Source: Escherichia coli 042
GTDB lineage: Bacteria > Pseudomonadota > Gammaproteobacteria > Enterobacterales > Enterobacteriaceae
Direction: 5' to 3' (one strand)
Length of the DNA stretch: 64,000 nt
Assembly: GCF_000027125.1 (NCBI RefSeq)
Contig: NC_017626.1
A program made the position numbers and the translations under genes. This document shows, one piece after another, positions 2,764 through 39,655 of this stretch. The stretch's first letter is position 1. Each line of letters begins with the position of its first letter. Under the pieces are notes generated by a model. It ran no database searches, had not been told where the DNA came from, and saw only the letters and a list, made by a program, of their open reading frames with translations.

Positions 2764-5439
2764 TTAAGCGGATTTCTTCGCTTTTTTCTCAGCTTTAGCC
2801 GGAGCGGCTTCTTTTTTCGCTGCAGTTTCACCTTCTACATAATCACGACCGTAGTAGGTATCCAGCAGAATCTGTTTCAGCTCGGAGATCAGTGGGTAAC
2901 GCGGGTTAGCGCCGGTGCACTGGTCATCGAATGCATCTTCAGACAGTTTATCCACATTCGCCAGGAAGTCTGCTTCCTGAACGCCAGCTTCACGGATAGA
3001 TTTCGGAATACCCAATTCAGCTTTCAGCGTTTCCAGCCATGCCAGCAGTTTCTCGATCTTAGCAGCAGTACGGTCGCCCGGTGCGCTCAGACCCAGGTGG
3101 TCAGCAATTTCAGCATAACGACGGCGAGCCTGCGGACGGTCATACTGGCTGAATGCAGTCTGCTTGGTCGGGTTGTCGTTCGCGTTGTAGCGAATAACGT
3201 TACAAATCAGCAGGGCGTTTGCCAGACCGTGCGGAATATGGAACTGGGAACCCAGTTTGTGCGCCATTGAGTGACATACACCCAGGAAGGCGTTCGCAAA
3301 CGCGATACCCGCGATAGTTGCTGCACTGTGAACACGTTCACGCGCTACCGGATTTTTAGATCCTTCGTGGTAGGACGCTGGCAGATATTCTTTCAGCAGT
3401 TTCAGCGCCTGCAGAGCCTGACCATCAGAGAACTCAGATGCCAGTACAGAAACATAAGCTTCCATGGCGTGAGTTACTGCGTCCAGACCACCGAAAGCAC
3501 ACAGGGACTTCGGCATGTCCATAACCAGGTTGGCATCGACAATCGCCATATCCGGGGTCAGCGCATAGTCTGCCAGCGGATATTTCTGACCAGTAGCGTC
3601 GTCAGTTACAACCGCAAACGGAGTGACTTCAGAACCTGTACCAGAAGTGGTGGTGACAGCGATCATTTTCGCTTTCACGCCCATTTTCGGGAACTTGTAG
3701 ATACGTTTACGGATATCCATAAAGCGCAGCGCCAGTTCTTCGAAGTGAGTTTCCGGATGTTCGTACATGACCCACATGATCTTCGCGGCGTCCATCGGGG
3801 AACCACCACCCAGCGCGATAATCACGTCTGGTTTGAAGGAGTTTGCCAGTTCTGCACCTTTACGAACGATGCTCAGGGTCGGGTCAGCTTCTACTTCGAA
3901 GAAGACTTCAGTTTCAACGCCTGCTGCTTTCAGTACGGAAGTGATCTGATCAGCATAACCATTGTTGAACAGGAAGCGGTCAGTCACGATGAGCGCACGT
4001 TTGTGGCCATCAGTAATCACTTCATCCAGCGCGATTGGCAGGGAGCCACGGCGGAAGTAGATAGATTTCGGAAGTTTGTGCCACAACATGTTTTCAGCTC
4101 GCTTAGCAACGGTTTTCTTGTTGATCAGGTGTTTCGGACCAACGTTTTCAGAGATGGAGTTACCACCCCAGGAACCACAACCCAGAGTCAGGGAAGGTGC
4201 GAGTTTGAAGTTATACAGGTCACCGATACCACCCTGAGAAGCCGGGGTGTTAATCAGGATACGAGCCGTTTTCATTTTCTGACCGAAGTAAGAAACGCGA
4301 GCCGGTTGGTTATCCTGGTCAGTGTACAGGCAAGAGGTATGACCGATACCGCCCATAGCAACCAGTTTCTCTGCTTTTTCTACCGCGTCTTCGAAATCTT
4401 TAGCGCGGTACATTGCCAGAGTCGGGGACAGTTTTTCATGTGCGAACGGTTCGCTTTCATCAACAACGGTCACTTCACCGATCAGAATCTTGGTGTTTTC
4501 TGGTACAGAGAAGCCTGCCAGTTCAGCAATTTTATAGGCTGGCTGACCAACGATAGCCGCGTTCAGCGCACCGTTTTTCAGGATAACGTCCTGAACAGCT
4601 TTCAGCTCTTTACCCTGCAACAGATAGCCGCCGTGGGTTGCGAAACGTTCACGTACTGCGTCATAAACAGAGTCAACAACAACAACAGACTGTTCAGAAG
4701 CACAGATTACGCCGTTGTCGAAGGTTTTGGACATCAGTACAGATGCAACTGCACGTTTGATATCAGCAGTTTCATCGATAACAACTGGAGTGTTGCCCGC
4801 GCCTACACCGATAGCTGGTTTACCGGAGCTGTATGCGGCTTTAACCATGCCCGGACCACCAGTCGCGAGGATCAGGTTGATGTCTGGGTGGTGCATCAGT
4901 GCGTTAGACAGTTCAACAGAAGGTTGATCGATCCAGCCGATCAGATCTTTCGGAGCACCGGCAGCGATAGCAGCCTGCAGAACGATATCAGCTGCTTTGT
5001 TGGTGGCATCTTTTGCTCGCGGGTGCGGGGAGAAGATAATGGCGTTACGGGTCTTCAGGCTGATCAGCGATTTGAAGATAGCAGTTGAAGTCGGGTTAGT
5101 GGTCGGAACGATACCGCAAATAATACCGATTGGTTCAGCGATAGTGATGGTACCAAAAGTGTCGTCTTCAGACAGAACACCACAGGTTTTTTCATCTTTA
5201 TAGGCGTTATAGATATATTCAGAAGCAAAGTGGTTTTTGATCACTTTATCTTCGACGATACCCATGCCGGATTCGGCAACGGCCATTTTCGCGAGTGGGA
5301 TTCGAGCATCTGCAGCAGCCAGAGCGGCGGCGCGGAAGATTTTGTCTACTTGCTCTTGAGTGAAACTGGCATATTCACGCTGGGCTTTTTTTACACGCTC
5401 TACGAGTGCGTTAAGTTCAGCGACATTAGTAACAGCCAT
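2764..5439 (-). CDS. adhE: bifunctional aldehyde/alcohol dehydrogenase AdhE (891 aa)
   Basis: 891-aa ORF, recognisable AdhE sequence. Confidence 0.97.
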
Positions 5440-25752: not shown

Positions 25753-25921
25753 GATGGCAGCCTCCGCGATGAATTTGATTAACTCACCACCGAGGTTTTC
25801 CACGACCATAAGGGTGGTGAGACGTACAGGGGTGGAAATACCGGTCATCACGGAACCCGGCCAGCCTTGCGGCTGCCCTGCACGCCCCACCATAATGCGA
25901 ATGTGGCTGTGCTTAACGCAT

Positions 25922-25946
25922 AAAAAAACCGCCTGAGCGCGGTTAT
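25922..25946 (-). terminator. intrinsic terminator on minus strand upstream of rha (tL-like)
   Basis: hairpin aaccgc gctcag gcggtt followed by T7 on minus strand. Confidence 0.5.
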
Positions 25947-26621
25947 GCGCCGTGAATGATTTCGGGTTTCCACGCCCGGCACCCGTTTTATGAGGTGCAG
26001 GTGCACTATAATTCCACCCGTTCTGGTTTTCAATAGCTACATTCAACATTTTCTCTACCTTTCATCACCGAAGTGAACTTTGTTGATGCGGTGCCTGGTG
26101 CCTCCAGGTGACGTTAACCAGTTAACAATTAACGTCGGATACAGAGCATTCCCGTTACGCCCGTAAAAGACCGCTTGTTTTAACTGTTCCGCGTGCGCTG
26201 AGCCGCATTCACCGCATCACAAAATTCACTTTAAAAAGGGCGGCAGAGCAGTCACGGAGTAGAACTGATACCGCCAAAAGTCACCAGAAAATTGATAACA
26301 GAGGGCGTTGCAGCGGAGTTGTCACTTAAGCGTATGGTCAACCTGACAACCCGGTGTCCTCAGCGGGGAAGGAATAACCCCGCCATACTTACCGCCGCGC
26401 CATTTCGCGGATTGCCACAACCGGAAGCGCACGGTCGAACTAAATTTAACGACACCGTACAGAGAGACCAATTTCGCCGTGCGCTTTCGCGTTATGCCCT
26501 GACTTTTCAGGGACATATCCTTTCAGTAAACTGTCAGTGCCGGATGCTCACCCGTGTCCGGCGCACGCACTCCACCTGACCCGTGGAGAACTCCTTAATT
26601 ACCAACCCTCAGGAGGGTGAA

Positions 26622-28915: not shown

Positions 28916-29324
28916 GCACATCCGCATGGCGATGAATGCCTGGGCGCATCCGGACGGTGAAAAAGTTCCGGCAGCTGAAATAACCCGGGCTTATTTTGAG
29001 CTTGGTATGACGTTCCCGGAATTATATGACGACAGCCATCCGGAAGCCCTGGCTCGCAATACCCAGAAAATTTTCCGCTGGGTGGAGAAAGACACTCCTG
29101 ATGCGGTTAAAAAAATTCAGGCGTTGTTACCAGCGATCGAAAAAGCAATGCCGCCTCTGCTGGTGGCCCGAATGCGCAGCCACAGTTCAGCTTATTTTCG
29201 GGAGCTGGTGGAGACGCGGGAACGACTGGTGAGAGACGCTGATGATTTTGTCGCAGTGGCGATCGCTGGTTTCAACCAGATGAATCGTGGTGGCCCTGCA
29301 GGAAATATTGTGGCTGTGCATTGA
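28899..29324 (+). CDS. ydaT: YdaT-like protein (141 aa; Rac prophage YdaT family)
   Basis: MKIRHEHIRMAMNAWAHPDGEKVPAAEIT... recalled as matching K-12 YdaT; overlaps ydaS-like stop. Confidence 0.75.
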   Translation: MKIRHEHIRMAMNAWAHPDGEKVPAAEITRAYFELGMTFPELYDDSHPEALARNTQKIFRWVEKDTPDAVKKIQALLPAIEKAMPPLLVARMRSHSSAYFRELVETRERLVRDADDFVAVAIAGFNQMNRGGPAGNIVAVH

Positions 29325-29395
29325 CTCGCAATATTCATACCGGATCACTTCCGGCAATTTGTGAGTAAAAAGATTCGGTATCAGAAGAGGTGAGT

Positions 29396-30436
29396 ATGGC
29401 TAACGCCTGGCTCAGATTATGGCATGACATGCCAAATGACCCTAAGTGGCGAACAATTGCCAGGGTGTCAGGGCAGCCAATTGCAACAGTGATGGCAGTG
29501 TATATCCACCTTCTGGTGAGCGCGTCACGAAATGTCACGACATGTCACGGCGTGTCACTACGTGGTCACATTGATGTCACGACGGAAGATTTAGCAAGTG
29601 CGCTTGATGTGACGGAAGAAGTAATTGATTCAATTTTACAGGCAATGCAGGGGCGGGTACTTGATGGAGATTTAATCACCGGATGGGAAAAACGCCAGGT
29701 ACTGAAAGAGGACAATGGCAACGTTTCACAAACCGCGAAATCCCCGGCAGAGCGCAAGAGAGCGCAGCGCGAGAGGGAAAAATTACGAAAACAGAATGAG
29801 GGGTGTCACGACGAGTCACGCATATGTCACGACATGTCACGACGAGTCACGACAGATAAAGATACAGATAAAGAATTAAACCCCACACATAACGCGCACG
29901 TGCGCGAGAGTGCTCCGACCAGTGAGTCGAGTGGTACGCCGTTGCAGGCAGCAGAACCTGCATCCCTGGATGGACTGAGCGAACCCATCGGGAAATTTCC
30001 GATGGTCGATGACTGGCATCCGTCGCCGGATTTTCGACGACGGGCTGCGTTGTGGGGGATGGCTTTGCCGGAGCCGGAATTTACACCTGCTGAACTTGCC
30101 GCTTTCCGGGACTACTGGGCAGCGGAGGGGAAAGTTTTCACGCAGGTTCAGTGGGAGCAGAAATTCGCCCGTCACGTAAATCACGTCAGGGCGCAGGTTA
30201 AGCCAGTCAGCAAGGGGGTAAACCATGCAGCAGCACCAGGTGGCACCGCATCACGGGCAGTTCAGGAAATTCGGGCAGCACGTGAGCAGTGGGAACGTGA
30301 AAACGGATTTATCAGCGACGGAAACGGTCTGGAAGCTGTGGGAACTCATGGGGGAGGTTTATTCGAACCGCTGGACCCAGAAGAACGGGGCCGCACCTTC
30401 GAAGCTCTGGATTGCACAGATTGGCGCGATGACTGA
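29396..30436 (+). CDS. replication initiator, lambda O-like role (YdaU/DUF1376-like N-terminus), 346 aa; contains ori iterons
   Basis: AAGAGG Shine-Dalgarno; two internal iteron arrays; followed by a lambda P-like gene. Confidence 0.8.
   Translation: MANAWLRLWHDMPNDPKWRTIARVSGQPIATVMAVYIHLLVSASRNVTTCHGVSLRGHIDVTTEDLASALDVTEEVIDSILQAMQGRVLDGDLITGWEKRQVLKEDNGNVSQTAKSPAERKRAQREREKLRKQNEGCHDESRICHDMSRRVTTDKDTDKELNPTHNAHVRESAPTSESSGTPLQAAEPASLDGLSEPIGKFPMVDDWHPSPDFRRRAALWGMALPEPEFTPAELAAFRDYWAAEGKVFTQVQWEQKFARHVNHVRAQVKPVSKGVNHAAAPGGTASRAVQEIRAAREQWERENGFISDGNGLEAVGTHGGGLFEPLDPEERGRTFEALDCTDWRDD
29521..29585. repeat. ori iteron array 1: six GTCAC-core repeats at ~10-bp spacing inside the initiator gene
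   Basis: gtcacgaaatgtcacgacatgtcacggcgtgtcactacgtggtcacattgatgtcacgac. Confidence 0.75.
29801..29880. repeat. ori iteron array 2: five GTCACG repeats at 10-11-bp spacing followed by an AT-rich tandem cagataaaga element
   Basis: gtcacgacgagtcacgcatatgtcacgacatgtcacgacgagtcacgac then agataaagatacagataaagaattaaa. Confidence 0.75.
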
Positions 30437-30890
30437 GCAGCAAATCCGACAGGTCTGCCGCCAGTGCATGGACCGCTGCCGGGCGGGTGAAACATGGCCT
30501 CCGGACCTGGCTGAGTTTGTGGCGCTGATTTCAGAAAGCGGGGCCAATCCATTTGGCCTGACGGTGGATGCTGTGATGGAGGAGTACCGCCGCTGGCGTG
30601 ATGAATCCTGGCGATATGACGGAAGCGACAAATATCCGTGGCCTCAGCCTGTGCTGTACCACATCTGCCTCGAAATGCGTACCAGAGGGATTGAGCGCCA
30701 GATGACGCAGGGTGAGTTAAAACGACTTGCGGAACGGCAACTGACGAAATGGGCAAAGCATGTTGGTAACGGGATGAGTGTTCCGCCAGTGCGACGACAA
30801 CTGGAAGGGGCGAAACACCCGCAAGGGCCAACGCCAATTGAACGGCTGAAACAGGAATACGAACGCCGGAAGGCAGCTGGTTTTATTTGA
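30225..30890 (+). CDS. lambda P-like replication protein (helicase loader family), 221 aa
   Basis: C-terminal half resembles lambda P (YDGSDKYPWPQP..., ...ELKRLAERQLTKWAKHV...); ATG with AGGGGG Shine-Dalgarno; overlaps the initiator 3' end out of frame. Confidence 0.65.
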   Translation: MQQHQVAPHHGQFRKFGQHVSSGNVKTDLSATETVWKLWELMGEVYSNRWTQKNGAAPSKLWIAQIGAMTEQQIRQVCRQCMDRCRAGETWPPDLAEFVALISESGANPFGLTVDAVMEEYRRWRDESWRYDGSDKYPWPQPVLYHICLEMRTRGIERQMTQGELKRLAERQLTKWAKHVGNGMSVPPVRRQLEGAKHPQGPTPIERLKQEYERRKAAGFI

Positions 30891-30923
30891 ATCTGAGAAA
30901 CGATTTTGTCGGAGGAAATTTTA

Positions 30924-31694
30924 ATGGAAACCGTATTTGACGCACTGAAAGCAATGGGAAAAGCCACATCGGTAGAACTGGCCGCGCGACTTGATATCAG
31001 TCGTGAAGAGGTTCTCAACGAGCTGTGGGAACTCAAAAGAAATGGCGTCGTTGATAAAACTGGTCACACCTGGTTTCTGGCTGGCGAAGGTGAATCCCGG
31101 GTAACCGAAGAGCGGCCAGTAAAATCTGAAGCACAGGATATGCTGACCGGGGAGGTCGAACAAAAAGTTACCGCAGACATGATGATTGAGTTTATCGGTC
31201 AGGATGGTGCTAAAACGTGTGAGGAACTGGCGGGTAAGTTCGGCGTCAGTACTCGCAAGGTTGCCTCCACGCTGGCGGTGGTAACCGCAACGGGGCGGCT
31301 GGCACGCGTTAATCAGAACGATAAATTTCGTTACTGCATGCCGGGCGATAATTTACCAGCAGAGCCGAAAGCCGCGCTGGTAACGGAAAGTGATGGTAAG
31401 GCCTTTCCTCAGCCAGCAGGTGCTGCGTTACCAGTCCGGGAAGCCGCAACACAGGAAGAAATTAAAACAGAAACTGTGGCGGACATTGTGCAGCCGTTGC
31501 CATCGTTTACCGAAACGCAAGCAGATGAGCTGATTTTTCCGTCCCTTCGCAGGGCAAACCTGGCGCTGCGCAGGGCGAAAAGTGATGTTCAGAAGTGGGA
31601 GCGAGTCTGCGCCGCGCTGCGGGAGGTGAACAAGCACCGGGATATTGTTCGACAGATTACTGATTCTTCCCGCCGTGTTGTATCGGAAAAGTGA
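30924..31694 (+). CDS. hypothetical protein (256 aa), predicted winged-helix at N-terminus
   Basis: internal ATG with GGAGG Shine-Dalgarno. Confidence 0.65.
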
Positions 31695-31709
31695 TTGCCG
31701 GAGGCGCTT

Positions 31710-32102
31710 ATGGCAAAAGTATTTACACCAGAAGAGCGGGAAGAAGTGAAGGCGCGCATTGTGGAATTCGTGCGCCTGAGCGGACGAGAAACTTTTCGAC
31801 AACTGGCAGATAAAACGGGTGTCAGTAAGACCGCTATTCGTCGTTTATCTGGTGCGCTTGCGGCCAGTGGTGATGTCTGGCTCTCTGGTTGCGGGGTATT
31901 TCCATCAGAGCAGGCGTATCGCGTATGGCGTAAGACACCGGAGAAGGCTGCTGACCCGACACTGATTCGAAAGTTACCTGACGGAGAAATACGTCGTTAC
32001 AACAGACGGCAGAACATAATTTGTCGTGAGTGCCGCCAGAGCGAAGTTATGCAGCGTGTGCTGGCGTTCTATCGGGGAAACTTTCAGGAGGTGATGGAGT
32101 GA
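31710..32102 (+). CDS. hypothetical protein (130 aa)
   Basis: ATG with GGAGG Shine-Dalgarno. Confidence 0.6.
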   Translation: MAKVFTPEEREEVKARIVEFVRLSGRETFRQLADKTGVSKTAIRRLSGALAASGDVWLSGCGVFPSEQAYRVWRKTPEKAADPTLIRKLPDGEIRRYNRRQNIICRECRQSEVMQRVLAFYRGNFQEVME

Positions 32103-32395
32103 GGGTCAGAGTTTATATTGCCGGTCCAATGACGGGATATGAAAATTTCAACCGTGAGGCGTTTCACAAGGCGGAAGAGGAACTGAAACGGGAAGGGCAT
32201 ACCGTCTTAAACCCGGCAGTACTTCCGGACGGGCTGACACAGCCGCACTACATGGATATTTGCATGGCAATGATTCGTTGTGTGGATGCGATTTACATGC
32301 TGAATGGCTGGCAGCGGTCAGCGGGCGCTAAGGCAGAGCTGGCACTGGCGGAGAAACTGGGGCATGCAGTGATTTATCAGGAGGTGGCTCAATGA
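32099..32395 (+). CDS. DUF4406-like protein (nucleoside 2-deoxyribosyltransferase-like fold), 98 aa
   Basis: GTG start after AGGAGG; VYIAGPMTG motif. Confidence 0.55.
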   Translation: MRVRVYIAGPMTGYENFNREAFHKAEEELKREGHTVLNPAVLPDGLTQPHYMDICMAMIRCVDAIYMLNGWQRSAGAKAELALAEKLGHAVIYQEVAQ

Positions 32396-32853
32396 GAGAG
32401 GTTAACTATGAGGCGCTTCGTGAGGCAGCACAAAACTATCAGTCGACGCTGGCGTGGTATCAGGCTATCCCGGACAGCCCAAATGCTGAACGGGATTGTG
32501 ATGCGGCTCTTGCTGCGTTTAAGCGTCACATCCGTCATCGGGAAGCGGATATTATCGCTGATTTGCTGGATGGACTGGAAGAAGCAAAATCACAACTCAA
32601 AGAGCAGCGTGAGTATTACGAAGGCGTTATCTCTGATGGGAGCAAGCGTATTGCTGAACTGGAAGCGCGGGAAGTTCAATTACCGACTCGCTACGACCTT
32701 CGATATGGACACCCGATAAATGCAGATGAGCGACATGTCATGATACCTAAAGAAAATGGCAGTTGGCTTTACCTGATTGACTTAGAACACGCATTACGCG
32801 TCGCTGGCATTCGCATCAAAGGAGAGGAGCATGGAAATAAAACCAGAGGATGA
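32392..32853 (+). CDS. hypothetical nin-region protein (153 aa)
   Basis: ATG with AGGAGG; ATGA overlap with upstream gene. Confidence 0.6.
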   Translation: MREVNYEALREAAQNYQSTLAWYQAIPDSPNAERDCDAALAAFKRHIRHREADIIADLLDGLEEAKSQLKEQREYYEGVISDGSKRIAELEAREVQLPTRYDLRYGHPINADERHVMIPKENGSWLYLIDLEHALRVAGIRIKGEEHGNKTRG

Positions 32854-33187
32854 GTTAAGCAATATCGTTTTATTTCCGGTAAAAGAGGATGACCCTCGTA
32901 ATCAGGTTAATTTTCTTTATGAGCCATCGGAAAGACCATATTGTCATCACGCCTCTGTTCGGGTTGACGAAAAAGAGCGTCAGGTCCGCTGTAAAATCTG
33001 CGGTGCAGTTGTGGAGCCGTTTGACTGGATGCTCTCTGTGGCGAAAAGAGAAACCAGACTGGCAGATGATGTAAGGCTATTGCGCCAGGAGGAACAGGAA
33101 AGGCGGAAAAATATAGAAAAGTTAATTCAGATTGAGCGTAACGCGAAAGCGCGGATATGCAGGGCGACAAAATCCAGAACTGAATAA
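32831..33187 (+). CDS. hypothetical protein with putative zinc ribbon (118 aa)
   Basis: C..H...CxxC spacing; GGAGAGGAG Shine-Dalgarno. Confidence 0.6.
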   Translation: MEIKPEDELSNIVLFPVKEDDPRNQVNFLYEPSERPYCHHASVRVDEKERQVRCKICGAVVEPFDWMLSVAKRETRLADDVRLLRQEEQERRKNIEKLIQIERNAKARICRATKSRTE

Positions 33188-33282
33188 TTAAATTTAGCAC
33201 TGTAAATAAAATCAAATCCTTAACCGGAGGGATTTCTGCACCCTCAGAACATCAGGAGGCCGTCCGAAAGGGCGGTAGTGAA

Positions 33283-33465
33283 ATGCGAAAATTCAAAATA
33301 ATTATTGAAACGGGAATAGCCGGTGGAGATTTCGAGGATGAATTCGAAGTGGATGATGATGCAACACCAGATGAAATACAGGATGAAGCTAAAGATATTT
33401 TCTTTAACTACTGCAATTACTCATACCACGAAATAAAAGACGAAGAGGAAGAACAAAATGGCTGA
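33283..33465 (+). CDS. small highly acidic protein (60 aa)
   Basis: about 19 of 60 residues are D/E; GGAGG Shine-Dalgarno. Confidence 0.55.
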   Translation: MRKFKIIIETGIAGGDFEDEFEVDDDATPDEIQDEAKDIFFNYCNYSYHEIKDEEEEQNG

Positions 33466-33634
33466 TTTTGGTTCAACTAAATATAACGCCAGTTTTGAAG
33501 AATGGCATGAACTGTTAATGGATTATGCAGAGTTACGCGGTGGAAGTGCCGCTGATGCTGAAGCATGGCGTGATGATTATGAAGCAGGGAAAACACCGGT
33601 CGAAGCATATTGTGATGAGTGGGGCGATGAATGA
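33458..33634 (+). CDS. small acidic protein (58 aa)
   Basis: manual translation; overlapping start and stop codons with both neighbours. Confidence 0.45.
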   Translation: MADFGSTKYNASFEEWHELLMDYAELRGGSAADAEAWRDDYEAGKTPVEAYCDEWGDE

Positions 33635-33990
33635 GCGAGATTAATTATCAGGAAGGGCATGAAAAGGTAGGGCAGGCAAAACCAGTGGCATGGCGATATC
33701 GCTACGTGAAAAAAGGCGTTACAGACTTTCAGGGGAAGCAGTGGGTTGGTGACTGGAAATATGTCCCGACAAAAGAGGATTGTAACGACAGACCAAACTA
33801 TGAAATTCAGGCGTTATTCACGGCCCCGCCAGCTTCGGTGACATCAGAAGGACTGGTTAAAGCTGTGCGCTTTTATGAACAGGTACGGCGTGAGGATCCG
33901 CCAGTTGAAACCGGAGCATGGAAAGACGCTATTGACTGGGTACTCAAGGAGGCCTGCCTGGTTGTAAACACGGGCATCAAAGGAGGCTGA
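33631..33990 (+). CDS. hypothetical protein (119 aa)
   Basis: ORF translationally coupled to upstream gene. Confidence 0.6.
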   Translation: MSEINYQEGHEKVGQAKPVAWRYRYVKKGVTDFQGKQWVGDWKYVPTKEDCNDRPNYEIQALFTAPPASVTSEGLVKAVRFYEQVRREDPPVETGAWKDAIDWVLKEACLVVNTGIKGG

Positions 33991-34206
33991 ATGGGTATTG
34001 CCGCAAGTTATACCATGCATCTCTATTGTGATTGCCGCCAGTGTACGGATGGCAAATATCAGTCGCCAGATTTTGGTGAGTATATCGGTACGTCATGGGC
34101 TGGCTGTGCAAAAGAGGCACGTAAAGATGGGTGGCGAATAAGTGCCGACAAAACGCGTGCTTTTGCGCCAGGGCATAAAATTTTGAGGAGCAACAAAGGA
34201 GAGTGA
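33991..34206 (+). CDS. hypothetical Cys-rich small protein (71 aa)
   Basis: AGGAGG Shine-Dalgarno. Confidence 0.55.
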   Translation: MGIAASYTMHLYCDCRQCTDGKYQSPDFGEYIGTSWAGCAKEARKDGWRISADKTRAFAPGHKILRSNKGE

Positions 34207-34207
34207 T

Positions 34208-34426
34208 GTGCCTACATTATTCAGAAAAGAATATCCGCGAAAAAGTAGAGCGACAGAATTTTTGTTTCTCATTCTGTTTATCGTGTTGATGATACCGATA
34301 TCCCCGTTAATTCTGGTATGGGGAATCGGAAAAATAATTGAGCCAGTTATTGAATTGTATAACGACGTGGTATGGGCTCCGTTCAACACACTGCACAATA
34401 AAATTAATCCGTATAAGGAAAACTGA
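34208..34426 (+). CDS. small membrane protein (72 aa, GTG start)
   Basis: hydrophobic core FLFLILFIVLMIPISPLILVWGIG; AAGGAG Shine-Dalgarno. Confidence 0.5.
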   Translation: MPTLFRKEYPRKSRATEFLFLILFIVLMIPISPLILVWGIGKIIEPVIELYNDVVWAPFNTLHNKINPYKEN

Positions 34427-34427
34427 T

Positions 34428-34691
34428 ATGGCAACTTTGACAAAAAAAGAACAGGCATGGTTGAACGAATTACAGGACGTTCTTGATCGCTGTCCATCAC
34501 CGAAAAAAATTGGTTTTTACACCATTGGCGATAAAAGCATTTACCTGTATGACCTGCGCCGCATGGATGAAATCATGGAGGCTCTTGATAATCGTTCGTC
34601 AATGGATTGGTGTGTTGCTGTCCATGATATGAATGCAGGGTTTGATGAAAAGATTTTGTTCCCCTCATCAGTTGAAAGCACTGCGGGTTAA
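34428..34691 (+). CDS. hypothetical protein (87 aa)
   Basis: internal ATG of listed ORF with AAGGAA Shine-Dalgarno. Confidence 0.55.
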   Translation: MATLTKKEQAWLNELQDVLDRCPSPKKIGFYTIGDKSIYLYDLRRMDEIMEALDNRSSMDWCVAVHDMNAGFDEKILFPSSVESTAG

Positions 34692-34701
34692 GGAGTAACA
34701 C

Positions 34702-34869
34702 ATGACCACTATTACCAAAGAACGTATTGAATTGTTCATTAAAAACCCGCTTGAAAACGGGCTTACCCGTGGTGAACAAATGGAACTGGCACGGATTGCG
34801 CTGGCATCGCTGGAAGCAGAGCCGGTTGTGTTCTGGTTTGAAAAATATCAAGAAGGGGCTACGGCATGA
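34702..34869 (+). CDS. hypothetical small protein (55 aa)
   Basis: manual translation; AAGGAG Shine-Dalgarno; ATGA overlap with next gene; shares an IAL.SL.AEP motif with the next protein. Confidence 0.5.
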
Positions 34870-35210
34870 CGACTTTTACCAGAGAGCAGTTAATAGCTCA
34901 CGCAGAGGAGACTATTGAAGCACAGAGACTGTGCATACCGGGCACAATCGACCATGACATCATCCGCACATATAAGATGGATATTGCTGTTCTGGAAATC
35001 GCACTGGTATCGCTGGCAGCAGAGCCAGCCGGTAAATTGCATGAATACAAACCAGTGGGATATCAGCGTCTGGTCGATGAGTTAACCATGCTGGTAAAGC
35101 AGTTAACCTGGCAACTGAGGAAAGCGAAGCCAGACTGCAAATTACCGGATAAGGCGATGAGTTATCTGGAGCGGAACGGACTGATAAGCGTGGAGGATAT
35201 TTTACGATGA
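34866..35210 (+). CDS. hypothetical protein (114 aa)
   Basis: ORF translationally coupled to neighbours. Confidence 0.6.
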
Positions 35211-35290
35211 CCTGGCCTGAAGCATTAACAACGGTAGGAATTGCGATGGCGGTGGCGCTGGTGGTGTATTCGATTTGCCGCTGGGGATAA
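35207..35290 (+). CDS. 27-aa hydrophobic peptide ([27 protein letters not shown])
   Basis: manual translation; GGAGG 10 nt upstream; ATGA overlap with upstream stop. Confidence 0.35.
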
Positions 35291-35501
35291 AAACGGTTTG
35301 CGGGAAAAGGAGAGTTAAGTAGAATTGCAGCGGGTGCTTGAGGCTATCTGTCTCAGGCATGAACACCAAAAGGCAGATAGAGAAAAGCCCCAGTTAACAT
35401 TACGCGTCCGGCAAGACGCTTAACATTAATCTGAGGCCATATCTATGCTCTACACACGTAGGTTAGCCTCTTACGTGCCGAAAGGCAAGGAGAAGCAGGC
35501 T

Positions 35502-35657
35502 ATGAAGCAGCAAAAGGCGATGCTAATCGCCCTGATCGTCATCTGTTTAACCGTCATTGTGACGGCACTGGTAACGAGGAAAGACCTCTGCGAGGTACGA
35601 ATCCGAACCGGCCAGACGGAGGTCGCTGTCTTCACAGCTTACGAACCTGAGGAGTAA
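35502..35657 (+). CDS. hok: Hok/Gef-family type I toxin (51 aa), HokD/RelF-like
   Basis: MKQQKAMLIALIVICLTVIVTALVTRKDLCEVRIRTGQTEVAVFTAYEPEE matches the Hok family signature. Confidence 0.8.
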   Translation: MKQQKAMLIALIVICLTVIVTALVTRKDLCEVRIRTGQTEVAVFTAYEPEE

Positions 35658-35726
35658 GAGACCCGGCGGGGGAGTAATCTCCCGCCACCTCTGATGTGCC
35701 AGGCATCCTCAACGCACCCGCACTTA

Positions 35727-35746
35727 ACCCGCTTCGGCGGGTTTTT
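35727..35746 (+). terminator. intrinsic terminator after hok (copy 1 of a duplicated terminator)
   Basis: cccgc ttcg gcggg ttttt. Confidence 0.7.
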
Positions 35747-35822
35747 GCATTAGTCTGGTTGACAAAAATAGAAAAATGCGAAAATATGTGGTTTACGAAT
35801 TCTAAAAAAAGCGAAACTTGAA

Positions 35823-36473
35823 ATGAATGAAAATCAGTTAGCTCCTTGTTGGGAATTTCAACCTTATCTTGCTGAAAACTATGTTCGCCACTTGTTGGCG
35901 GAGATCGCTAACGTACTTGAGCAGCTGTACTATCATAAGCACGCATTAGACAGCAACTGGTCTGAAGGTGTAAGGGCTTATGATTGGGTCAGAAATCATC
36001 TTATTCAAAATGAAGATGCAATTCCTGGCCTTGAGATGATTTCCAAGGGGTTGGACTATGTAGTTGCTTTAAATAAAGTTCCGCTACAATTTACCAAAGA
36101 TTGCATTAATAACCCCAAAAAGAAACATCGTCTGCGTCGAAATAAAGTAGAGTATGAGCAGCTCTCATTGTTTGGTGATGTTGAGGCTGAGCAAGATATT
36201 ACATGGCGAGTCATAGCTGAGCCTTTTTTATCCGAAGAGGGCGATGGTGAATTAGAGTCCACACTGCCTCGTTGGGAGGTAGCTCTTGTTGGATTTAATA
36301 CTTATGGTGCTCAGATTAGTATAGTTTCTCATCAATCTACAGCATCGATGCCGCTTATGCCTCTTGATTATAACACACTCCCTGACGAAGCGGAGATTAA
36401 TAAGGTGCCTCTTCGTCGGCGTACGAAGGATAAAGATTTGGATGTGAGCAGTGATGGAACATCAGGTGAATAA
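35823..36473 (+). CDS. hypothetical protein (216 aa), first gene of a low-GC two-gene cassette
   Basis: ORF after TTGACA-containing promoter-like sequence; no motif recognised by eye. Confidence 0.7.
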   Translation: MNENQLAPCWEFQPYLAENYVRHLLAEIANVLEQLYYHKHALDSNWSEGVRAYDWVRNHLIQNEDAIPGLEMISKGLDYVVALNKVPLQFTKDCINNPKKKHRLRRNKVEYEQLSLFGDVEAEQDITWRVIAEPFLSEEGDGELESTLPRWEVALVGFNTYGAQISIVSHQSTASMPLMPLDYNTLPDEAEINKVPLRRRTKDKDLDVSSDGTSGE

Positions 36474-37557
36474 CTTCACTGAGTATCGGGGTGATAAGCT
36501 CAAACTAGCGAGAATGGCTGTTGGGCTTTCTTGTGAAGAGTTAGCCGAAAAAATTGGCAAGACAAAGCAATTCGTTAGCAAACTGGAGAAGGGGTGCAGG
36601 CCATCGGAGCAATGTCTTGAGTTAATATCTTCAGCGCTTATGATTAAGTCCAGTTTTCTTTTTACTGAACGAAAATACGCTCTGGAAAGTGATGTCTGCC
36701 ATTTTCGGAGTAAGAAGTCCAGGACTCAAACGCTGACTAATAGTGTATTGGCCAGGGCTGAGATTCTTAATATTATAATTTCTGCTGTTGAAGGTGAAAT
36801 CGAATTTCCTGACGTTAACATACCGGAGCACCCAGGGGCTGAATTACTTACTCCGAATGATATTGAGCGAGTGGCAGAAGATTGTCGCCGTGCCTGGAAT
36901 TTAGGTCTTGGCCCTATATCATCAATGGTTAAATTGGCGGAGAGTTTAGGGGTAATCGTTGCGCATGTTACGGGAGTCGATGATCGTGTTGATGCTTTTA
37001 CTGTTCACAATAACAGGCCTGTTATCATCAGGAACAATGTTAAAAAAAGCATATGTAGATTTCGCTCTGATTTAGGTCATGAATTAGGGCATTTAGTAAT
37101 GCATGAGGGCATAACGACAGGTGATAAACTTACGGAATCACAAGCCGATCACTTTTCGAGCGCCTTATTAGTTCCCAGGTTATCTTTCATTAAAGAATTT
37201 CCACGAATACGAGGTAAGCAATTCGACTGGAATGCTCTGGTTGAATTTAAACTTAGATGGAAAATCAGCCTTAAAATGTGTATTTATCGAGCCAGCGCAT
37301 TAGGCTTATTGACCCAGGAACAGGCAAGAACTGGCTATATGCATCTTAATTCCAGAGGGTATACGAGAGTTGAACCTGGTGATGAACTTTTGCGCCCTGA
37401 AGAACCCGGCATGCTGGCCGAGGCGATTGAAATGCTGGATGATGCAACCTGGCTAAGAATTCTTATGAAAACTGGCTTGAGCCAAGATTTAATTCGTGAG
37501 TTGTTCTCCATCAACAGACCTATTACAAATCCAAGAAATATTTTCCAGATTGTTTGA
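36454..37557 (+). CDS. fused XRE-family HTH / ImmA-IrrE (COG2856-type) zinc metallopeptidase (367 aa)
   Basis: N-terminal HTH (LSCEELAEKIGKTKQFVSKLEKG) and HExxH motif HELGHLVMHE; overlaps upstream gene by about 20 nt. Confidence 0.8.
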   Translation: MEHQVNNFTEYRGDKLKLARMAVGLSCEELAEKIGKTKQFVSKLEKGCRPSEQCLELISSALMIKSSFLFTERKYALESDVCHFRSKKSRTQTLTNSVLARAEILNIIISAVEGEIEFPDVNIPEHPGAELLTPNDIERVAEDCRRAWNLGLGPISSMVKLAESLGVIVAHVTGVDDRVDAFTVHNNRPVIIRNNVKKSICRFRSDLGHELGHLVMHEGITTGDKLTESQADHFSSALLVPRLSFIKEFPRIRGKQFDWNALVEFKLRWKISLKMCIYRASALGLLTQEQARTGYMHLNSRGYTRVEPGDELLRPEEPGMLAEAIEMLDDATWLRILMKTGLSQDLIRELFSINRPITNPRNIFQIV

Positions 37558-37561
37558 GTAT

Positions 37562-37582
37562 ACCCGCTTCGGCGGGTTTTTT
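37562..37582 (+). terminator. intrinsic terminator (copy 2, identical core to 35727-35746)
   Basis: acccgcttcggcgggtttttt. Confidence 0.7.
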
Positions 37583-37714
37583 GTTTTTATTTTCAACGTG
37601 TTTGAAGTTTTGGACGGTGCCAGAATAGAATCAAAAATACTTAAGTAGCGCGCAGGGAGAAGAGGGATGGACCCCGAACAGGGGGAGTGCTATTTATCTG
37701 GAAGGATTCTGTTG

Positions 37715-37888
37715 ATGAAAATCGAAGAATTACGTGAAATTTTTAGTGAAGATGGCCTCTATGCTGTGCGCGTTGAGAATGGGGGTATTACCTACACAGC
37801 GTTAATTCCTGATGATCATGTAGTGTTATCTGTTGAGGCATTCATTGAATACTTGGAAAGACTCGGTTTCAAGGTAGTTCGGGAATAA
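37715..37888 (+). CDS. hypothetical small protein (57 aa)
   Basis: internal ATG with GGAAGG upstream. Confidence 0.45.
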   Translation: MKIEELREIFSEDGLYAVRVENGGITYTALIPDDHVVLSVEAFIEYLERLGFKVVRE

Positions 37889-37947
37889 GTTATAATACGT
37901 GAGCCAGCCTGAACAACTGGCAACCTGCAGCGCCATTGGAGATGACA

Positions 37948-38220
37948 ATGGCGCATAATTTCAAATTTCGCAATTCTGATTCTGCCTTTGCCAGCAGGCA
38001 CGGGTGGCGTTCTCACGCATTCAAATATGACTGGTATCAGCACGATCCCTGTACTGAAGAACAGGCCGAATGGCTGATTCATAACTACCGCAGACGTGGA
38101 TATGAGTTTAGGAAAGCCCTCACCCTCGATTATCGTCACTGGATAATCTACGTCAGACTCCCTTATTCCGAACGCCCACCGCGTCCGTCCCGCACATTCC
38201 AGCAACGCATCTGGAGGTAA
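37948..38220 (+). CDS. hypothetical protein (90 aa)
   Basis: ATG 6 nt after GGAG. Confidence 0.5.
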   Translation: MAHNFKFRNSDSAFASRHGWRSHAFKYDWYQHDPCTEEQAEWLIHNYRRRGYEFRKALTLDYRHWIIYVRLPYSERPPRPSRTFQQRIWR

Positions 38221-38221
38221 C

Positions 38222-39268
38222 GTGCGGGTATTACTTCGACCTGTTCTGGTACCGGAACTCGGGCTGGTGATCGTTAAGCCGGGCCGTGAATCCATGCCGG
38301 TATTCCACAATACCCGGGTACTGGTGGAGCCGGAACCGAAAAGCATGCGTAATCTGCCGTCCGGGGTCGTTCCTGCCGTTCGCCAGCCGCTGGCGGAGGA
38401 TAAATCATTACTGCCATTTTTCAGCGACGAACGAGTGATTCGTGCTGCTGGTGGCGCTGGCGCATTGTCTGATTGGTTACTGCGCCATGTTAAATCCTGC
38501 CAGTGGCCACACGGCGATTATCACCACAGTGAAACCGTCATTCACCGTTATGGTACCGGCGCAATGGTGTTGTGCTGGCACTGCGACAACCAGCTGCGCG
38601 ACCAGACCTCCGAATCACTCGGGCAACTTGCTCACCAAAACCTGTCTGCATGGATGATTGACGTCATACGCCATGCAATGAATGGCTCGCAGGAACGGGA
38701 ATTATCGCTGGCTGAATTATCCTGGTGGGCGGTCCGCAATCAGGTGGCGGACGCGCTACCGGAAGCGGTATTACGTCGTTCGCTGGGGTTGCGTGCGGAA
38801 AAAATCCGCTCAATGTACCGTGAAAGCGACATCGTACCGGGAGAGCAGACCGCCACCAGCATACTGAAGCAGCGCACAAAAAATCTTGCGCCGCTGCCTC
38901 ACGCCCACCAGCAAAACCCGCCACAGGAAGAGACGGTGGTCAGCATTGCCGTTGATCCTGAGTCTCCGGAATCTTTCATGAAACGACCTAAACGTCGCCG
39001 CTGGGTTAACGAGAAATACACACGCTGGGTGAAGACACAGCCGTGTGCGTGTTGTGGTAAGCCAGCCGACGATCCCCATCACCTGATTGGTCATGGTCAG
39101 GGCGGAATGGGGACAAAATCTCACGATATTTTCACGCTACCGCTGTGTCGGGAGCATCACAACGAGCTTCATGCGGATCCGCTGGCGTTCGAAGAAAAGC
39201 ATGGTTCTCAGGTTGATTTAATTTTTCGTTTTCTTGATCACGCCTTTGCAACTGGCGTGCTTGGGTAA
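38222..39268 (+). CDS. DUF968-family prophage protein with C-terminal HNH-like zinc motif (348 aa), YdfU-like
   Basis: C-terminus CACCGK...DDPHHLIGHG...LCREHHNELH; GTG start after GGAGG. Confidence 0.7.
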   Translation: MRVLLRPVLVPELGLVIVKPGRESMPVFHNTRVLVEPEPKSMRNLPSGVVPAVRQPLAEDKSLLPFFSDERVIRAAGGAGALSDWLLRHVKSCQWPHGDYHHSETVIHRYGTGAMVLCWHCDNQLRDQTSESLGQLAHQNLSAWMIDVIRHAMNGSQERELSLAELSWWAVRNQVADALPEAVLRRSLGLRAEKIRSMYRESDIVPGEQTATSILKQRTKNLAPLPHAHQQNPPQEETVVSIAVDPESPESFMKRPKRRRWVNEKYTRWVKTQPCACCGKPADDPHHLIGHGQGGMGTKSHDIFTLPLCREHHNELHADPLAFEEKHGSQVDLIFRFLDHAFATGVLG

Positions 39269-39280
39269 AAGAGGTGACTG

Positions 39281-39655
39281 ATGCTCATAGATTTGGTTTT
39301 ACCTTACCCGCCGACGGTGAACACTTACTGGCGACGCCGTGGCAGCACATATTTTATCTCGGAGGAGGGAAAGCGTTATCGCCGGGCTGTGGCGCTTATT
39401 GTTCGCCAGCAGCGGCTGAAATTAAGCCTGTCCGGAAGGCTGGCGATAAAGGTGATTGCAGAGCCACCGGATAAGCGTCGTCGCGACCTGGACAATATCC
39501 TGAAAGCACCGCTGGATGCGCTGACGCATGCGGGAGTGTTAATGGACGATGAGCAGTTTGATGAAATCAATATCGTTCGTGGTCAGCCAGTATCTGGTGG
39601 ACGTCTGGGGGTGAAGATTTACCCCATAATGCTTGAAGGGCAGGTCAAAAAATGA
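39281..39655 (+). CDS. rusA: Holliday junction resolvase RusA family (124 aa)
   Basis: conserved ...PDKRRRDLDNILKAPLDALTHAGV... as in RusA. Confidence 0.85.
   Translation: MLIDLVLPYPPTVNTYWRRRGSTYFISEEGKRYRRAVALIVRQQRLKLSLSGRLAIKVIAEPPDKRRRDLDNILKAPLDALTHAGVLMDDEQFDEINIVRGQPVSGGRLGVKIYPIMLEGQVKK

Follow-up and report, generated by a model that had tools for sequence, protein, structure and literature searches.

A predicted hok/mok/sok type I toxin-antitoxin locus and a neighbouring 27-codon ORF in a prophage of Escherichia coli 042

The reading frame of 51 aa considered here resembles the Hok toxins, and a 27-aa hydrophobic ORF lies just upstream of it, which raises two questions: is this a complete type I toxin-antitoxin (TA) locus, and does the small hydrophobic ORF form part of it? 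We addressed them in a stretch of 64,000 nucleotides of Escherichia coli 042 DNA (contig NC_017626.1), to which we refer in its entirety as the window. Our analysis indicates that positions 35298-35748 very probably hold an intact hok/mok/sok type I TA locus of the HokD/HokW subgroup that is carried as cargo of a lambdoid prophage, and that the 27-aa ORF is a separate gene; this reading is based on the DNA sequence and on analogy with characterised relatives. The hok/sok locus itself is already known, as the toxin is named hokD in RefSeq and a near-identical homologue has been validated. The features at the locus are listed in Table 1.

Table 1. Features at the hok locus, in coordinates of the window
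Feature	Position	Strand	Remarks
Upstream 114-aa early-operon ORF	34866-35210	+	PHROG 660; Pfam: none
27-aa ORF, M-x-WPEAF/TM/CRWG family	35207-35290	+	ATG overlaps the TGA of the 114-aa ORF as ATGA
hok promoter (predicted)	35298-35325	+	-35 TTGCGG 35298-35303, 16-nt spacer, -10 TAGAAT 35320-35325; read from sequence
Full-length hok mRNA (predicted, ~417 nt)	35332-35748	+	Fold; Rfam RF01794 over 35332-35507
tac, 5' element GGGUGCUUGAGG	35332-35343	+	Pairs with fbi
Sok antisense RNA (predicted, ~71 nt)	35383-35453	-	Fold; maps onto annotated sokW
mok-like frame, 70 aa	35445-35657	+	In frame with hok; SD GAGG 35433-35436
Sok promoter (predicted)	35460-35488	-	-35 TTGCCT 35488-35483, 17-nt spacer, -10 TAACCT 35465-35460; read from sequence
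hok toxin gene, 51 aa (RefSeq HokD, WP_000813254.1)	35502-35657	+	SD GGAG 35489-35492
fbi, 3' fold-back element CCUCAACGCACCC	35707-35719	+	Pairs with tac
hok mRNA intrinsic terminator	35726-35748	+	7-bp stem, T-run

The hok gene, its mRNA and the predicted antisense RNA

The assignment of the 51-aa peptide to the Hok/Gef family, made in the initial annotation, is borne out by a match over the whole of the Pfam model HOK_GEF (PF01848; E=3.5e-23, model positions 1-42 of 42) and by a match to PHROG 251, “MokW-like host killing” (E=7.8e-33). Conserved cysteine had been given as part of the family signature; membership in the Hok family stands, but the second “conserved Cys” position is a tyrosine in HokD, and a preprint describes RNA editing that recodes this Tyr position. 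The peptide lies within a longer mok-like frame, as the initial annotation had noted, and this 70-aa frame, which encloses hok, is homologous to the annotated mokW. Used as a query against NCBIfam, the 70-aa Mok frame scored under the curated cut-off of the Hok model (47.5 vs 73 bits). Among 105 related loci, a mok frame of 70 aa is present in 74; a frame of at least 60 aa is absent from 28, and three more have one of another length.

Comparison with Rfam had been suggested from the outset, and a scan of the whole window returned RF01794 (“sok”) at 35332-35507, where it scored 117.1 bits and the gathering score is 59 (E=5e-26, model positions 1-157 of 157). As the match is on the plus strand, it covers the leader of the hok mRNA, and Sok itself is complementary to this strand. 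No further credible RNA family emerged when 34900-35900 was rescanned with permissive settings. Position 1 of the model falls on 35332, and the predicted hok promoter, which begins 8 nt past the stop codon of the 27-aa ORF, is the same in 933W. The predicted mRNA of 417 nt folds with a minimum free energy (MFE) of -169.3 kcal/mol (z=-6.45 vs shuffles), and in both the MFE and the centroid folds its first 11-12 nt pair with 35707-35719. The fold-back elements on which the initial reading partly depended are thus found in the predicted structures, where the pairing of GGGUGCUUGAGG with CCUCAACGCACCC corresponds to the tac-fbi lock known from hok mRNAs. A 13-mer from the fbi region (35708-35720) is exact in 84 of the 105 related loci. 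Our terminator scan made a single call, at 35726-35743; the stretch that leads from the upstream ORFs to hok gave none.

A Sok-like antisense RNA had been anticipated in the leader between 35300 and 35500. A candidate does lie there, running from 35453 to 35383 behind a predicted promoter at 35488-35460, and it is homologous to sokW, an RNA that has been detected by Northern blotting; the sokW annotation of 933W maps to these positions. The predicted RNA begins with a single-stranded 5' tail of 15 nt, which is followed by a long hairpin and then a U-run (-28.6 kcal/mol, z=-5.4), and it is complementary to the SD and start codon of mok. Across 52 distinct related sequences, the hairpin carries 15 double-sided pair changes (e.g., AT to GC, GC to CG and TA to CG). 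The predicted promoter is the same as that of 933W, and its hexamers recur unchanged in 79 and 84 of the 105 related loci; its -10 hexamer is weak, and the promoter as a whole is too weak for the consensus scanner, which made no call.

The 651 bp from 35150 to 35800 recur with 100% identity in many complete genomes of E. coli, with the 51-aa ORF annotated as hokD in RefSeq. Some match to this segment is present in 4956 of the 5426 complete E. coli genomes, and 1083 of them match over at least 80% of its length. The RefSeq record of ABU 83972 has 99.5% identity over positions 29150-41800 of the window and differs in the flanks, and its annotation was applied to this collinear part only.

It could be argued that such a locus has kept its structure but fallen silent in function, a hok relic passively carried like the chromosomal loci of K-12. 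Earlier work, as reported in a preprint, found no post-segregational killing by chromosomal hokA, hokB and hokC, so the activity of the present copy cannot be assumed. This reading can also draw on the truncation of K-12 hokD to what corresponds to 35489-35748, on the 28 related loci with no mok frame of at least 60 aa and on the three with a frame of another length. However, all of the regulatory elements are present here, Sok and its promoter as predictions, the sequence is identical across many genomes, and hokW-sokW, which is 92.7% identical, is active and affects phage release (PMC8621323). We therefore consider a silent relic quite improbable, and favor an intact TA locus.

The 27-aa ORF

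The initial annotation described the 27-aa ORF as hydrophobic, coupled to the preceding gene and too short for normal annotation. All of this agrees with what we found: its start codon overlaps the stop codon of that gene at 35207-35210, and the RefSeq record of ABU 83972 has no CDS for it, yet it behaves as a conserved coding gene. It follows the pattern M-x-WPEAF, transmembrane helix, CRWG, with a mean Kyte-Doolittle hydropathy of 2.16 over residues 6-24, and a GGAGG lies 10 nt upstream of its start. Some GenBank submitters have labelled it “prophage protein” or “hypothetical protein”.

To describe its distribution we used two samples of IMG/VR loci, one of 113 loci anchored on the hok promoter and mRNA 5' end (the tac sequence) and one of 111 loci anchored on the first 20 nt of the 27-aa ORF, together with an unanchored tblastn search, which found the ORF in 95 phage records. 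The length is exactly 27 codons in 97 of the 111 ORF-anchored loci and is kept in copies down to ~63% aa identity, and the WPEAF motif is also seen in the unanchored tblastn hits that we examined. The homology with 933W begins exactly at the ATG of the ORF, which is intact there behind a different upstream gene. Several contexts have no hok, namely YYZ-2008 and VT1-Sakai, where the ORF lies between a DUF551 gene and DUF4222/xis/int, phage 24-2-1, and the P1-like Salmonella phage SJ46, which has a 24-aa version. In these hok-less contexts the start of the ORF invariably lies at the preceding gene's stop, and there is often a good SD, such as the GGAGG found 7 nt 5' of the ATG in the DUF551 contexts. 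Overall, no fewer than three different genes precede the ORF, their C-termini unrelated (...PPQEVNQ, ...ISVEDILR and ...NIEQKVNQ), and its start overlaps or abuts their stops. Broken copies exist as well: that of POCJ13 has a stop at codon 3, and 5 of 47 hok-linked copies are disrupted. Of 5426 complete E. coli genomes, 1633 (~30%) carry the 84-nt sequence, at 3108 places with up to seven per genome, 163 of them on plasmids. Two degenerate 84-nt patterns matched none of 100,044 species-representative genomes, which points to shallow conservation, and the family as we found it is spread over E. coli/Shigella phages and the one P1-like Salmonella phage.

Selection in the reading frame was assessed in two ways. 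Pairwise pN/pS over codons 8-27 is 0.48 in frame, whereas the two alternative frames give 0.86 and 1.81. When the history of 54 distinct sequences was reconstructed by neighbour joining and parsimony, 213 changes were inferred, of which 94 are synonymous; random placement would give 66.5, and none of 2000 simulations gave as high a count (P<0.0005); the excess is confined to this frame, and the other frames are depleted. Near-invariant residues are G11, A13, A15, Y21, I23, C24, R25, W26 and G27. The distribution of variable sites over the three codon positions (allele counts 33/30/45) was not significant by a rough chi-square. The ORF thus combines frame-specific purifying selection, of moderate strength, with a conserved length.

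These results bear on whether the ORF is a gene at all, or an open frame that persists by chance in a conserved spacer 5' of the hok promoter. It is very short, and since the surrounding 3 kb hold 50 ORFs of at least 20 aa, a frame of 27 codons is by itself not above chance. It has no CDS in the RefSeq record that we used, some of its copies are disrupted, and we found no Pfam or NCBIfam model for it and no match to the peptide in the supplements of a Ribo-seq paper on small genes of EHEC Sakai. A chance frame would nevertheless not be expected to show a synonymous excess in this frame alone or a length fixed at 27 codons down to ~63% identity, nor to occur in hok-less contexts with its start at the preceding stop and often a good SD. 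We regard a chance frame as unlikely, and the ORF as probably a genuine small gene for a single-pass membrane peptide.

Database and literature searches add little on its function. Neither Pfam, NCBIfam nor PADLOC gave a model match to the family, its one PHROG match is weak (phrog_4612, E=0.011), and a full-text literature search for the peptide found nothing. As a 27-codon gene without a family model, it constitutes a concrete gap in small-protein annotation. Three candidate relationships were considered and rejected. A cluster of exact sequences had joined the peptide with DUF551 proteins, but the DUF551 sequences that we retrieved lacked it; because DUF551 genes are frequent upstream neighbours with no peptide inside, we attribute the grouping to an artefact of the clustering and read no fusion into it. 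BLASTP produced no alignment of the 27-aa peptide with Hok, which speaks against a decayed hok, and none with the 34-aa transmembrane ORF that is found upstream of other hok loci (see below), which speaks against homology with the latter.

Small hydrophobic peptides with a single transmembrane helix include the Ibs, ShoB and Ldr-type toxins. The 27-aa peptide is of this kind and adjoins both a TA locus and a defence island, so that it might itself be a type I-like membrane toxin. Such a toxin would be expected to form a transcription unit of its own, with a structured leader and an RNA antitoxin that is either antisense or divergent. None of these were found: in scans of 35100-35297, neither strand gave a site resembling a promoter or a terminator, or a match in Rfam. 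The ORF is translationally coupled to ordinary early genes and has no similarity to Hok. Moreover, in a published hokW-sokW clone with sokW intact, arabinose-driven transcription through the ORF caused no growth defect, though the clone is without the native SD of the ORF. A toxin of this type is extremely unlikely in our view. The 27-aa gene product is most likely a single-pass inner-membrane peptide with an accessory role in the phage, and as its N-terminus is acidic and its C-terminus basic, the positive-inside rule points to an N-out/C-in orientation.

The 27-aa ORF as a neighbour of hok, and a proposed mechanism

The 27-aa ORF and hok are often found together. An M-x-WPEA[FL] ORF lies within 700 nt upstream in 64 of the 113 hok-anchored loci (57%), at spacings of 28, ~203 or ~280 nt, and hok lies within 400 nt downstream in 55 of the 111 ORF-anchored loci (50%); an association in both directions leaves room for a functional link. 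Other prophage hok loci have a 34-aa single-TM ORF of the MSDDISLAMEGALAVIAVVGVYCLVVFLMDRLGN type directly upstream of the hok promoter, which has its own strong SD and is uncoupled, whereas the 27-aa ORF is coupled, and ORFs of both types stand in tandem in 20 loci. In addition, the published hokW-sokW clones begin exactly at the ATG of the 27-aa ORF (primer YO-432), and therefore include the ORF, unremarked, and exclude its native SD.

Taken together, these observations could mean that prophage hok has a functional third partner in the 27-aa peptide, which would act as a membrane modulator or immunity factor, or as a relay of induction through translation or read-through. The recombination pattern argues otherwise. 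The hok module stands behind several unrelated upstream sequences, with homology that begins at the -35 region GGATAAAAACGG, indicating that it moves independently of the 27-aa ORF. Furthermore, pBAD24-hokW is toxic by itself, and sokW alone offsets the toxicity of a promoter-less construct (PMC8621323). Given that either element is found alone in about half of the cases and that hokW is toxic without the ORF, the two are better described as frequent neighbours, where a string of ea/DUF551-type early genes ends, than as one system, and a third partner seems very unlikely. To our knowledge, R1 and the other characterised hok/sok loci need no such peptide. Judged from the sequence, the 27-aa ORF appears to be a separate coding gene and a frequent neighbour of hok, and not a component of the TA system.

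A related proposal is that the peptide is functionally wired to prophage hok/sok, either by membrane action with or against Hok or as a marker of the read-through path on which induction silences the convergent Sok promoter; we find this quite doubtful. In the read-through version, the early operon would have the 27-aa ORF as its final cistron, with an end 8 nt short of the hok -35, and the ORF would mark the induction path that releases Hok; in 933W, read-through would occur only once circularisation sets the module downstream of int. If true, this wiring would explain the RecA- and induction-dependent loss of SokW that has been reported for Sp5.

For the TA locus, read as intact and distinct from the 27-aa gene, we propose a mechanism by analogy with R1 hok/sok and the 92.7%-identical hokW-sokW. 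A constitutive promoter would give rise to a stable hok mRNA of ~417 nt, which would be kept translationally inert by 5'-3' pairing of tac with fbi until 3' trimming allows the leader to refold and expose the ribosome-binding site of mok. Translation of hok would depend entirely on coupling to mok, and the convergent, unstable Sok RNA of ~70 nt would block it by pairing with the SD and start region of mok, after which the duplex would be cleaved. When the supply of Sok ends, the 51-aa Hok would enter the inner membrane and collapse it. The trigger in a prophage is likely to be induction. The 27-aa ORF would be the last gene in an upstream string of translationally coupled early genes, and since no terminator separates these genes from hok, we infer that early transcription runs through the locus; de-repressed early-right transcription would then cross it in the sense direction and head-on into the Sok promoter. 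Such a collision would account for the induction-dependent loss of SokW that is left unexplained in Takada et al. (PMC8621323), where prophage induction led to the loss of SokW and the production of HokW in a way that depended on RecA, and increased phage release about two-fold.

Prophage setting and comparison with known hok loci

A recent survey preprint found hok to be enriched in prophages. The present locus lies between replication/ea-type genes and the Q antiterminator gene, in the same orientation as both. Directly downstream of it are a 216-aa ORF (35823-36473) and a 368-aa ORF (36451-37557) that match the PADLOC models RmrT (E=4.6e-25) and RmrA (E=6.2e-105), respectively, and which on these matches are a Rosmer defence pair. 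The GC content of the pair is below that of the neighbouring DNA. The equivalent slot of the K-12 prophage Qin, next to ydfU and Q, contains relBE-hokD. With hok/sok and Rosmer here and relBE-hokD there, this prophage position appears to collect toxin and defence genes, and the slot can be regarded as a hotspot for such cargo.

The closest characterised relative is hokW-mokW-sokW of the Stx2 phage 933W and the Sakai prophage Sp5, with 92.7% DNA identity over 35207-35729; the 933W record has mokW, hokW and antisense sokW annotated at the corresponding places. Besides mok and hok, the shared stretch takes in the 27-aa ORF, the leader, fbi and the two promoters, but the homology stops short of the terminator. 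HokW and the Hok protein encoded here are identical at 47 of 51 residues, with differing C-terminal tails (FTAYEPEE here vs FVDYESEK in HokW). The loci also differ in position: the one described here is in the early-right (P-to-Q) region, while the 933W copy sits past the tail genes, at the extreme right of the prophage map. The hokW-sokW pair of 933W/Sp5 is an experimentally validated type I TA system (PMC8621323). Takada et al. 2021 (PMC8621323) found HokW to be toxic and located in the inner membrane; the sokW RNA counteracts it, partly via RNase III and Hfq, and both hokW and sokW RNAs were detected in Northern blots (PMC8621323). HokW has 44% identity to the Hok of R1 (PMC8621323).

The K-12 Qin hokD (relF) shares the RefSeq name and encodes an identical Hok protein, and it occupies the same prophage slot, adjoining ydfU(DUF968)/Q. 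Near-identity of the DNA, however, is confined to 35489-35748, a stretch that opens with the hok SD and closes with the terminator. K-12 has no hok promoter and no tac, and it is also without the start of mok and without sok and its promoter; relBE abuts the hok SD. As the K-12 locus is truncated, the window holds the complete form of a locus that survives as a stump in K-12.

The hok/sok (parB) locus of R1 belongs to the same Pfam and Rfam families and has the same architecture, with the mok/hok overlap, a convergent Sok (here a predicted one) across the mok start, tac-fbi closure and a terminal hairpin. It differs in that its peptide is only distantly related and that it is borne by a plasmid, whereas the locus described here is borne by a prophage. 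The role of the latter is likely to be in induction, lysis or defence, rather than in plasmid stabilisation as in R1.

The 27-aa ORF in phage 933W, variant copies and published clones

In the prophage of phage 933W (sequences L002, 2501-2950, and L251, 1-1700), the pL operon extends to int at attL. The 27-aa ORF and hokW, the 933W homolog of hok, lie at the far right end of the prophage on the same strand. Once 933W has been excised and circularised, both genes would follow int along the direction of pL transcription, and this placement could explain the induction-dependent production of HokW. Homology to the window at 35201-35223 is found in primer YO-432, with which the published pBAD18-hokW-sokW clones were made (PMC8621323). 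These clones start at GAATCA-ATGACCTGGCCTGAAGC, exactly the start of the 27-aa ORF, so all pBAD18-hokW-sokW constructs include this ORF, which goes unmentioned in that paper.

Copies of the small ORF also vary. The copy in Shigella phage POCJ13 (L252, 1201-1284) has a stop at codon 3, and the P1-like Salmonella phage SJ46 (L253, 1201-1275) carries a 24-aa version, MSWPEAFAIVGVAMAIAAIFIFWG. Plasmids of E. coli also carry the 84-nt ORF sequence, at 163 places in all, and the listed records of these plasmids have lengths of about 89-100 kb. Many related hok loci (L007, 3178-3282, and similar IMG/VR loci) contain a second small transmembrane (TM) ORF, unlike the 27-aa ORF and placed between it and the hok promoter. 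This ORF has a strong Shine-Dalgarno sequence, encodes 34 aa (MSDDISLAMEGALAVIAVVGVYCLVVFLMDRLGN) and is followed by a perfect 22-bp palindrome, CGATATGGGAATTCCCATATCG. In a third locus type (L012 and L050), there is a related peptide (...ALAIAAVMAIYCLVIVLMDHLSD). No Pfam match was obtained for these small TM ORFs.

The Tyr47 codon of hok

The Tyr47 codon of hok is TAC followed by G, forming a TACG motif at window 35640-35643. TadA has been reported to perform A-to-I editing of the hokD mRNA, converting this Tyr to the second Cys (preprint 10.1101/2025.08.07.668861). As encoded in the genome, Hok is thus missing one of its two “conserved” cysteines.

Prophage mosaicism and cargo beyond hok

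The window does not come from E. coli ABU 83972: only window ~20655-43529 is collinear with the prophage of that strain, in blocks of 91-99.6% identity. As the left flank (1-20650) and the late region (beyond ~43500) differ, the window prophage is a mosaic relative. The other Rfam matches are of kinds typical of E. coli lambdoid prophages.

Defence and RNA features of the window prophage
Feature	Position	Strand	Evidence or location
C4 antisense RNA, isrK, DicF	25810-26289	-	Rfam; early-left region
RmrT-matching ORF	35823-36473	+	PADLOC RmrT, E=4.6e-25
RmrA-matching ORF	36451-37557	+	PADLOC RmrA, E=6.2e-105; HTH plus ImmA-like peptidase
Three tRNAs and two STnc100 copies	42147-42393, 42472-43149	+	Rfam; downstream of Q/methyltransferase region

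The first two ORFs beyond the hok terminator are a Rosmer anti-phage defence pair, with a GC content of ~0.39-0.45; hok itself has 0.50, and the DNA further to the right 0.55. This hok/Rosmer slot looks like a cargo hotspot, as the equivalent slot in the Qin prophage of K-12 is filled by relBE-hokD.
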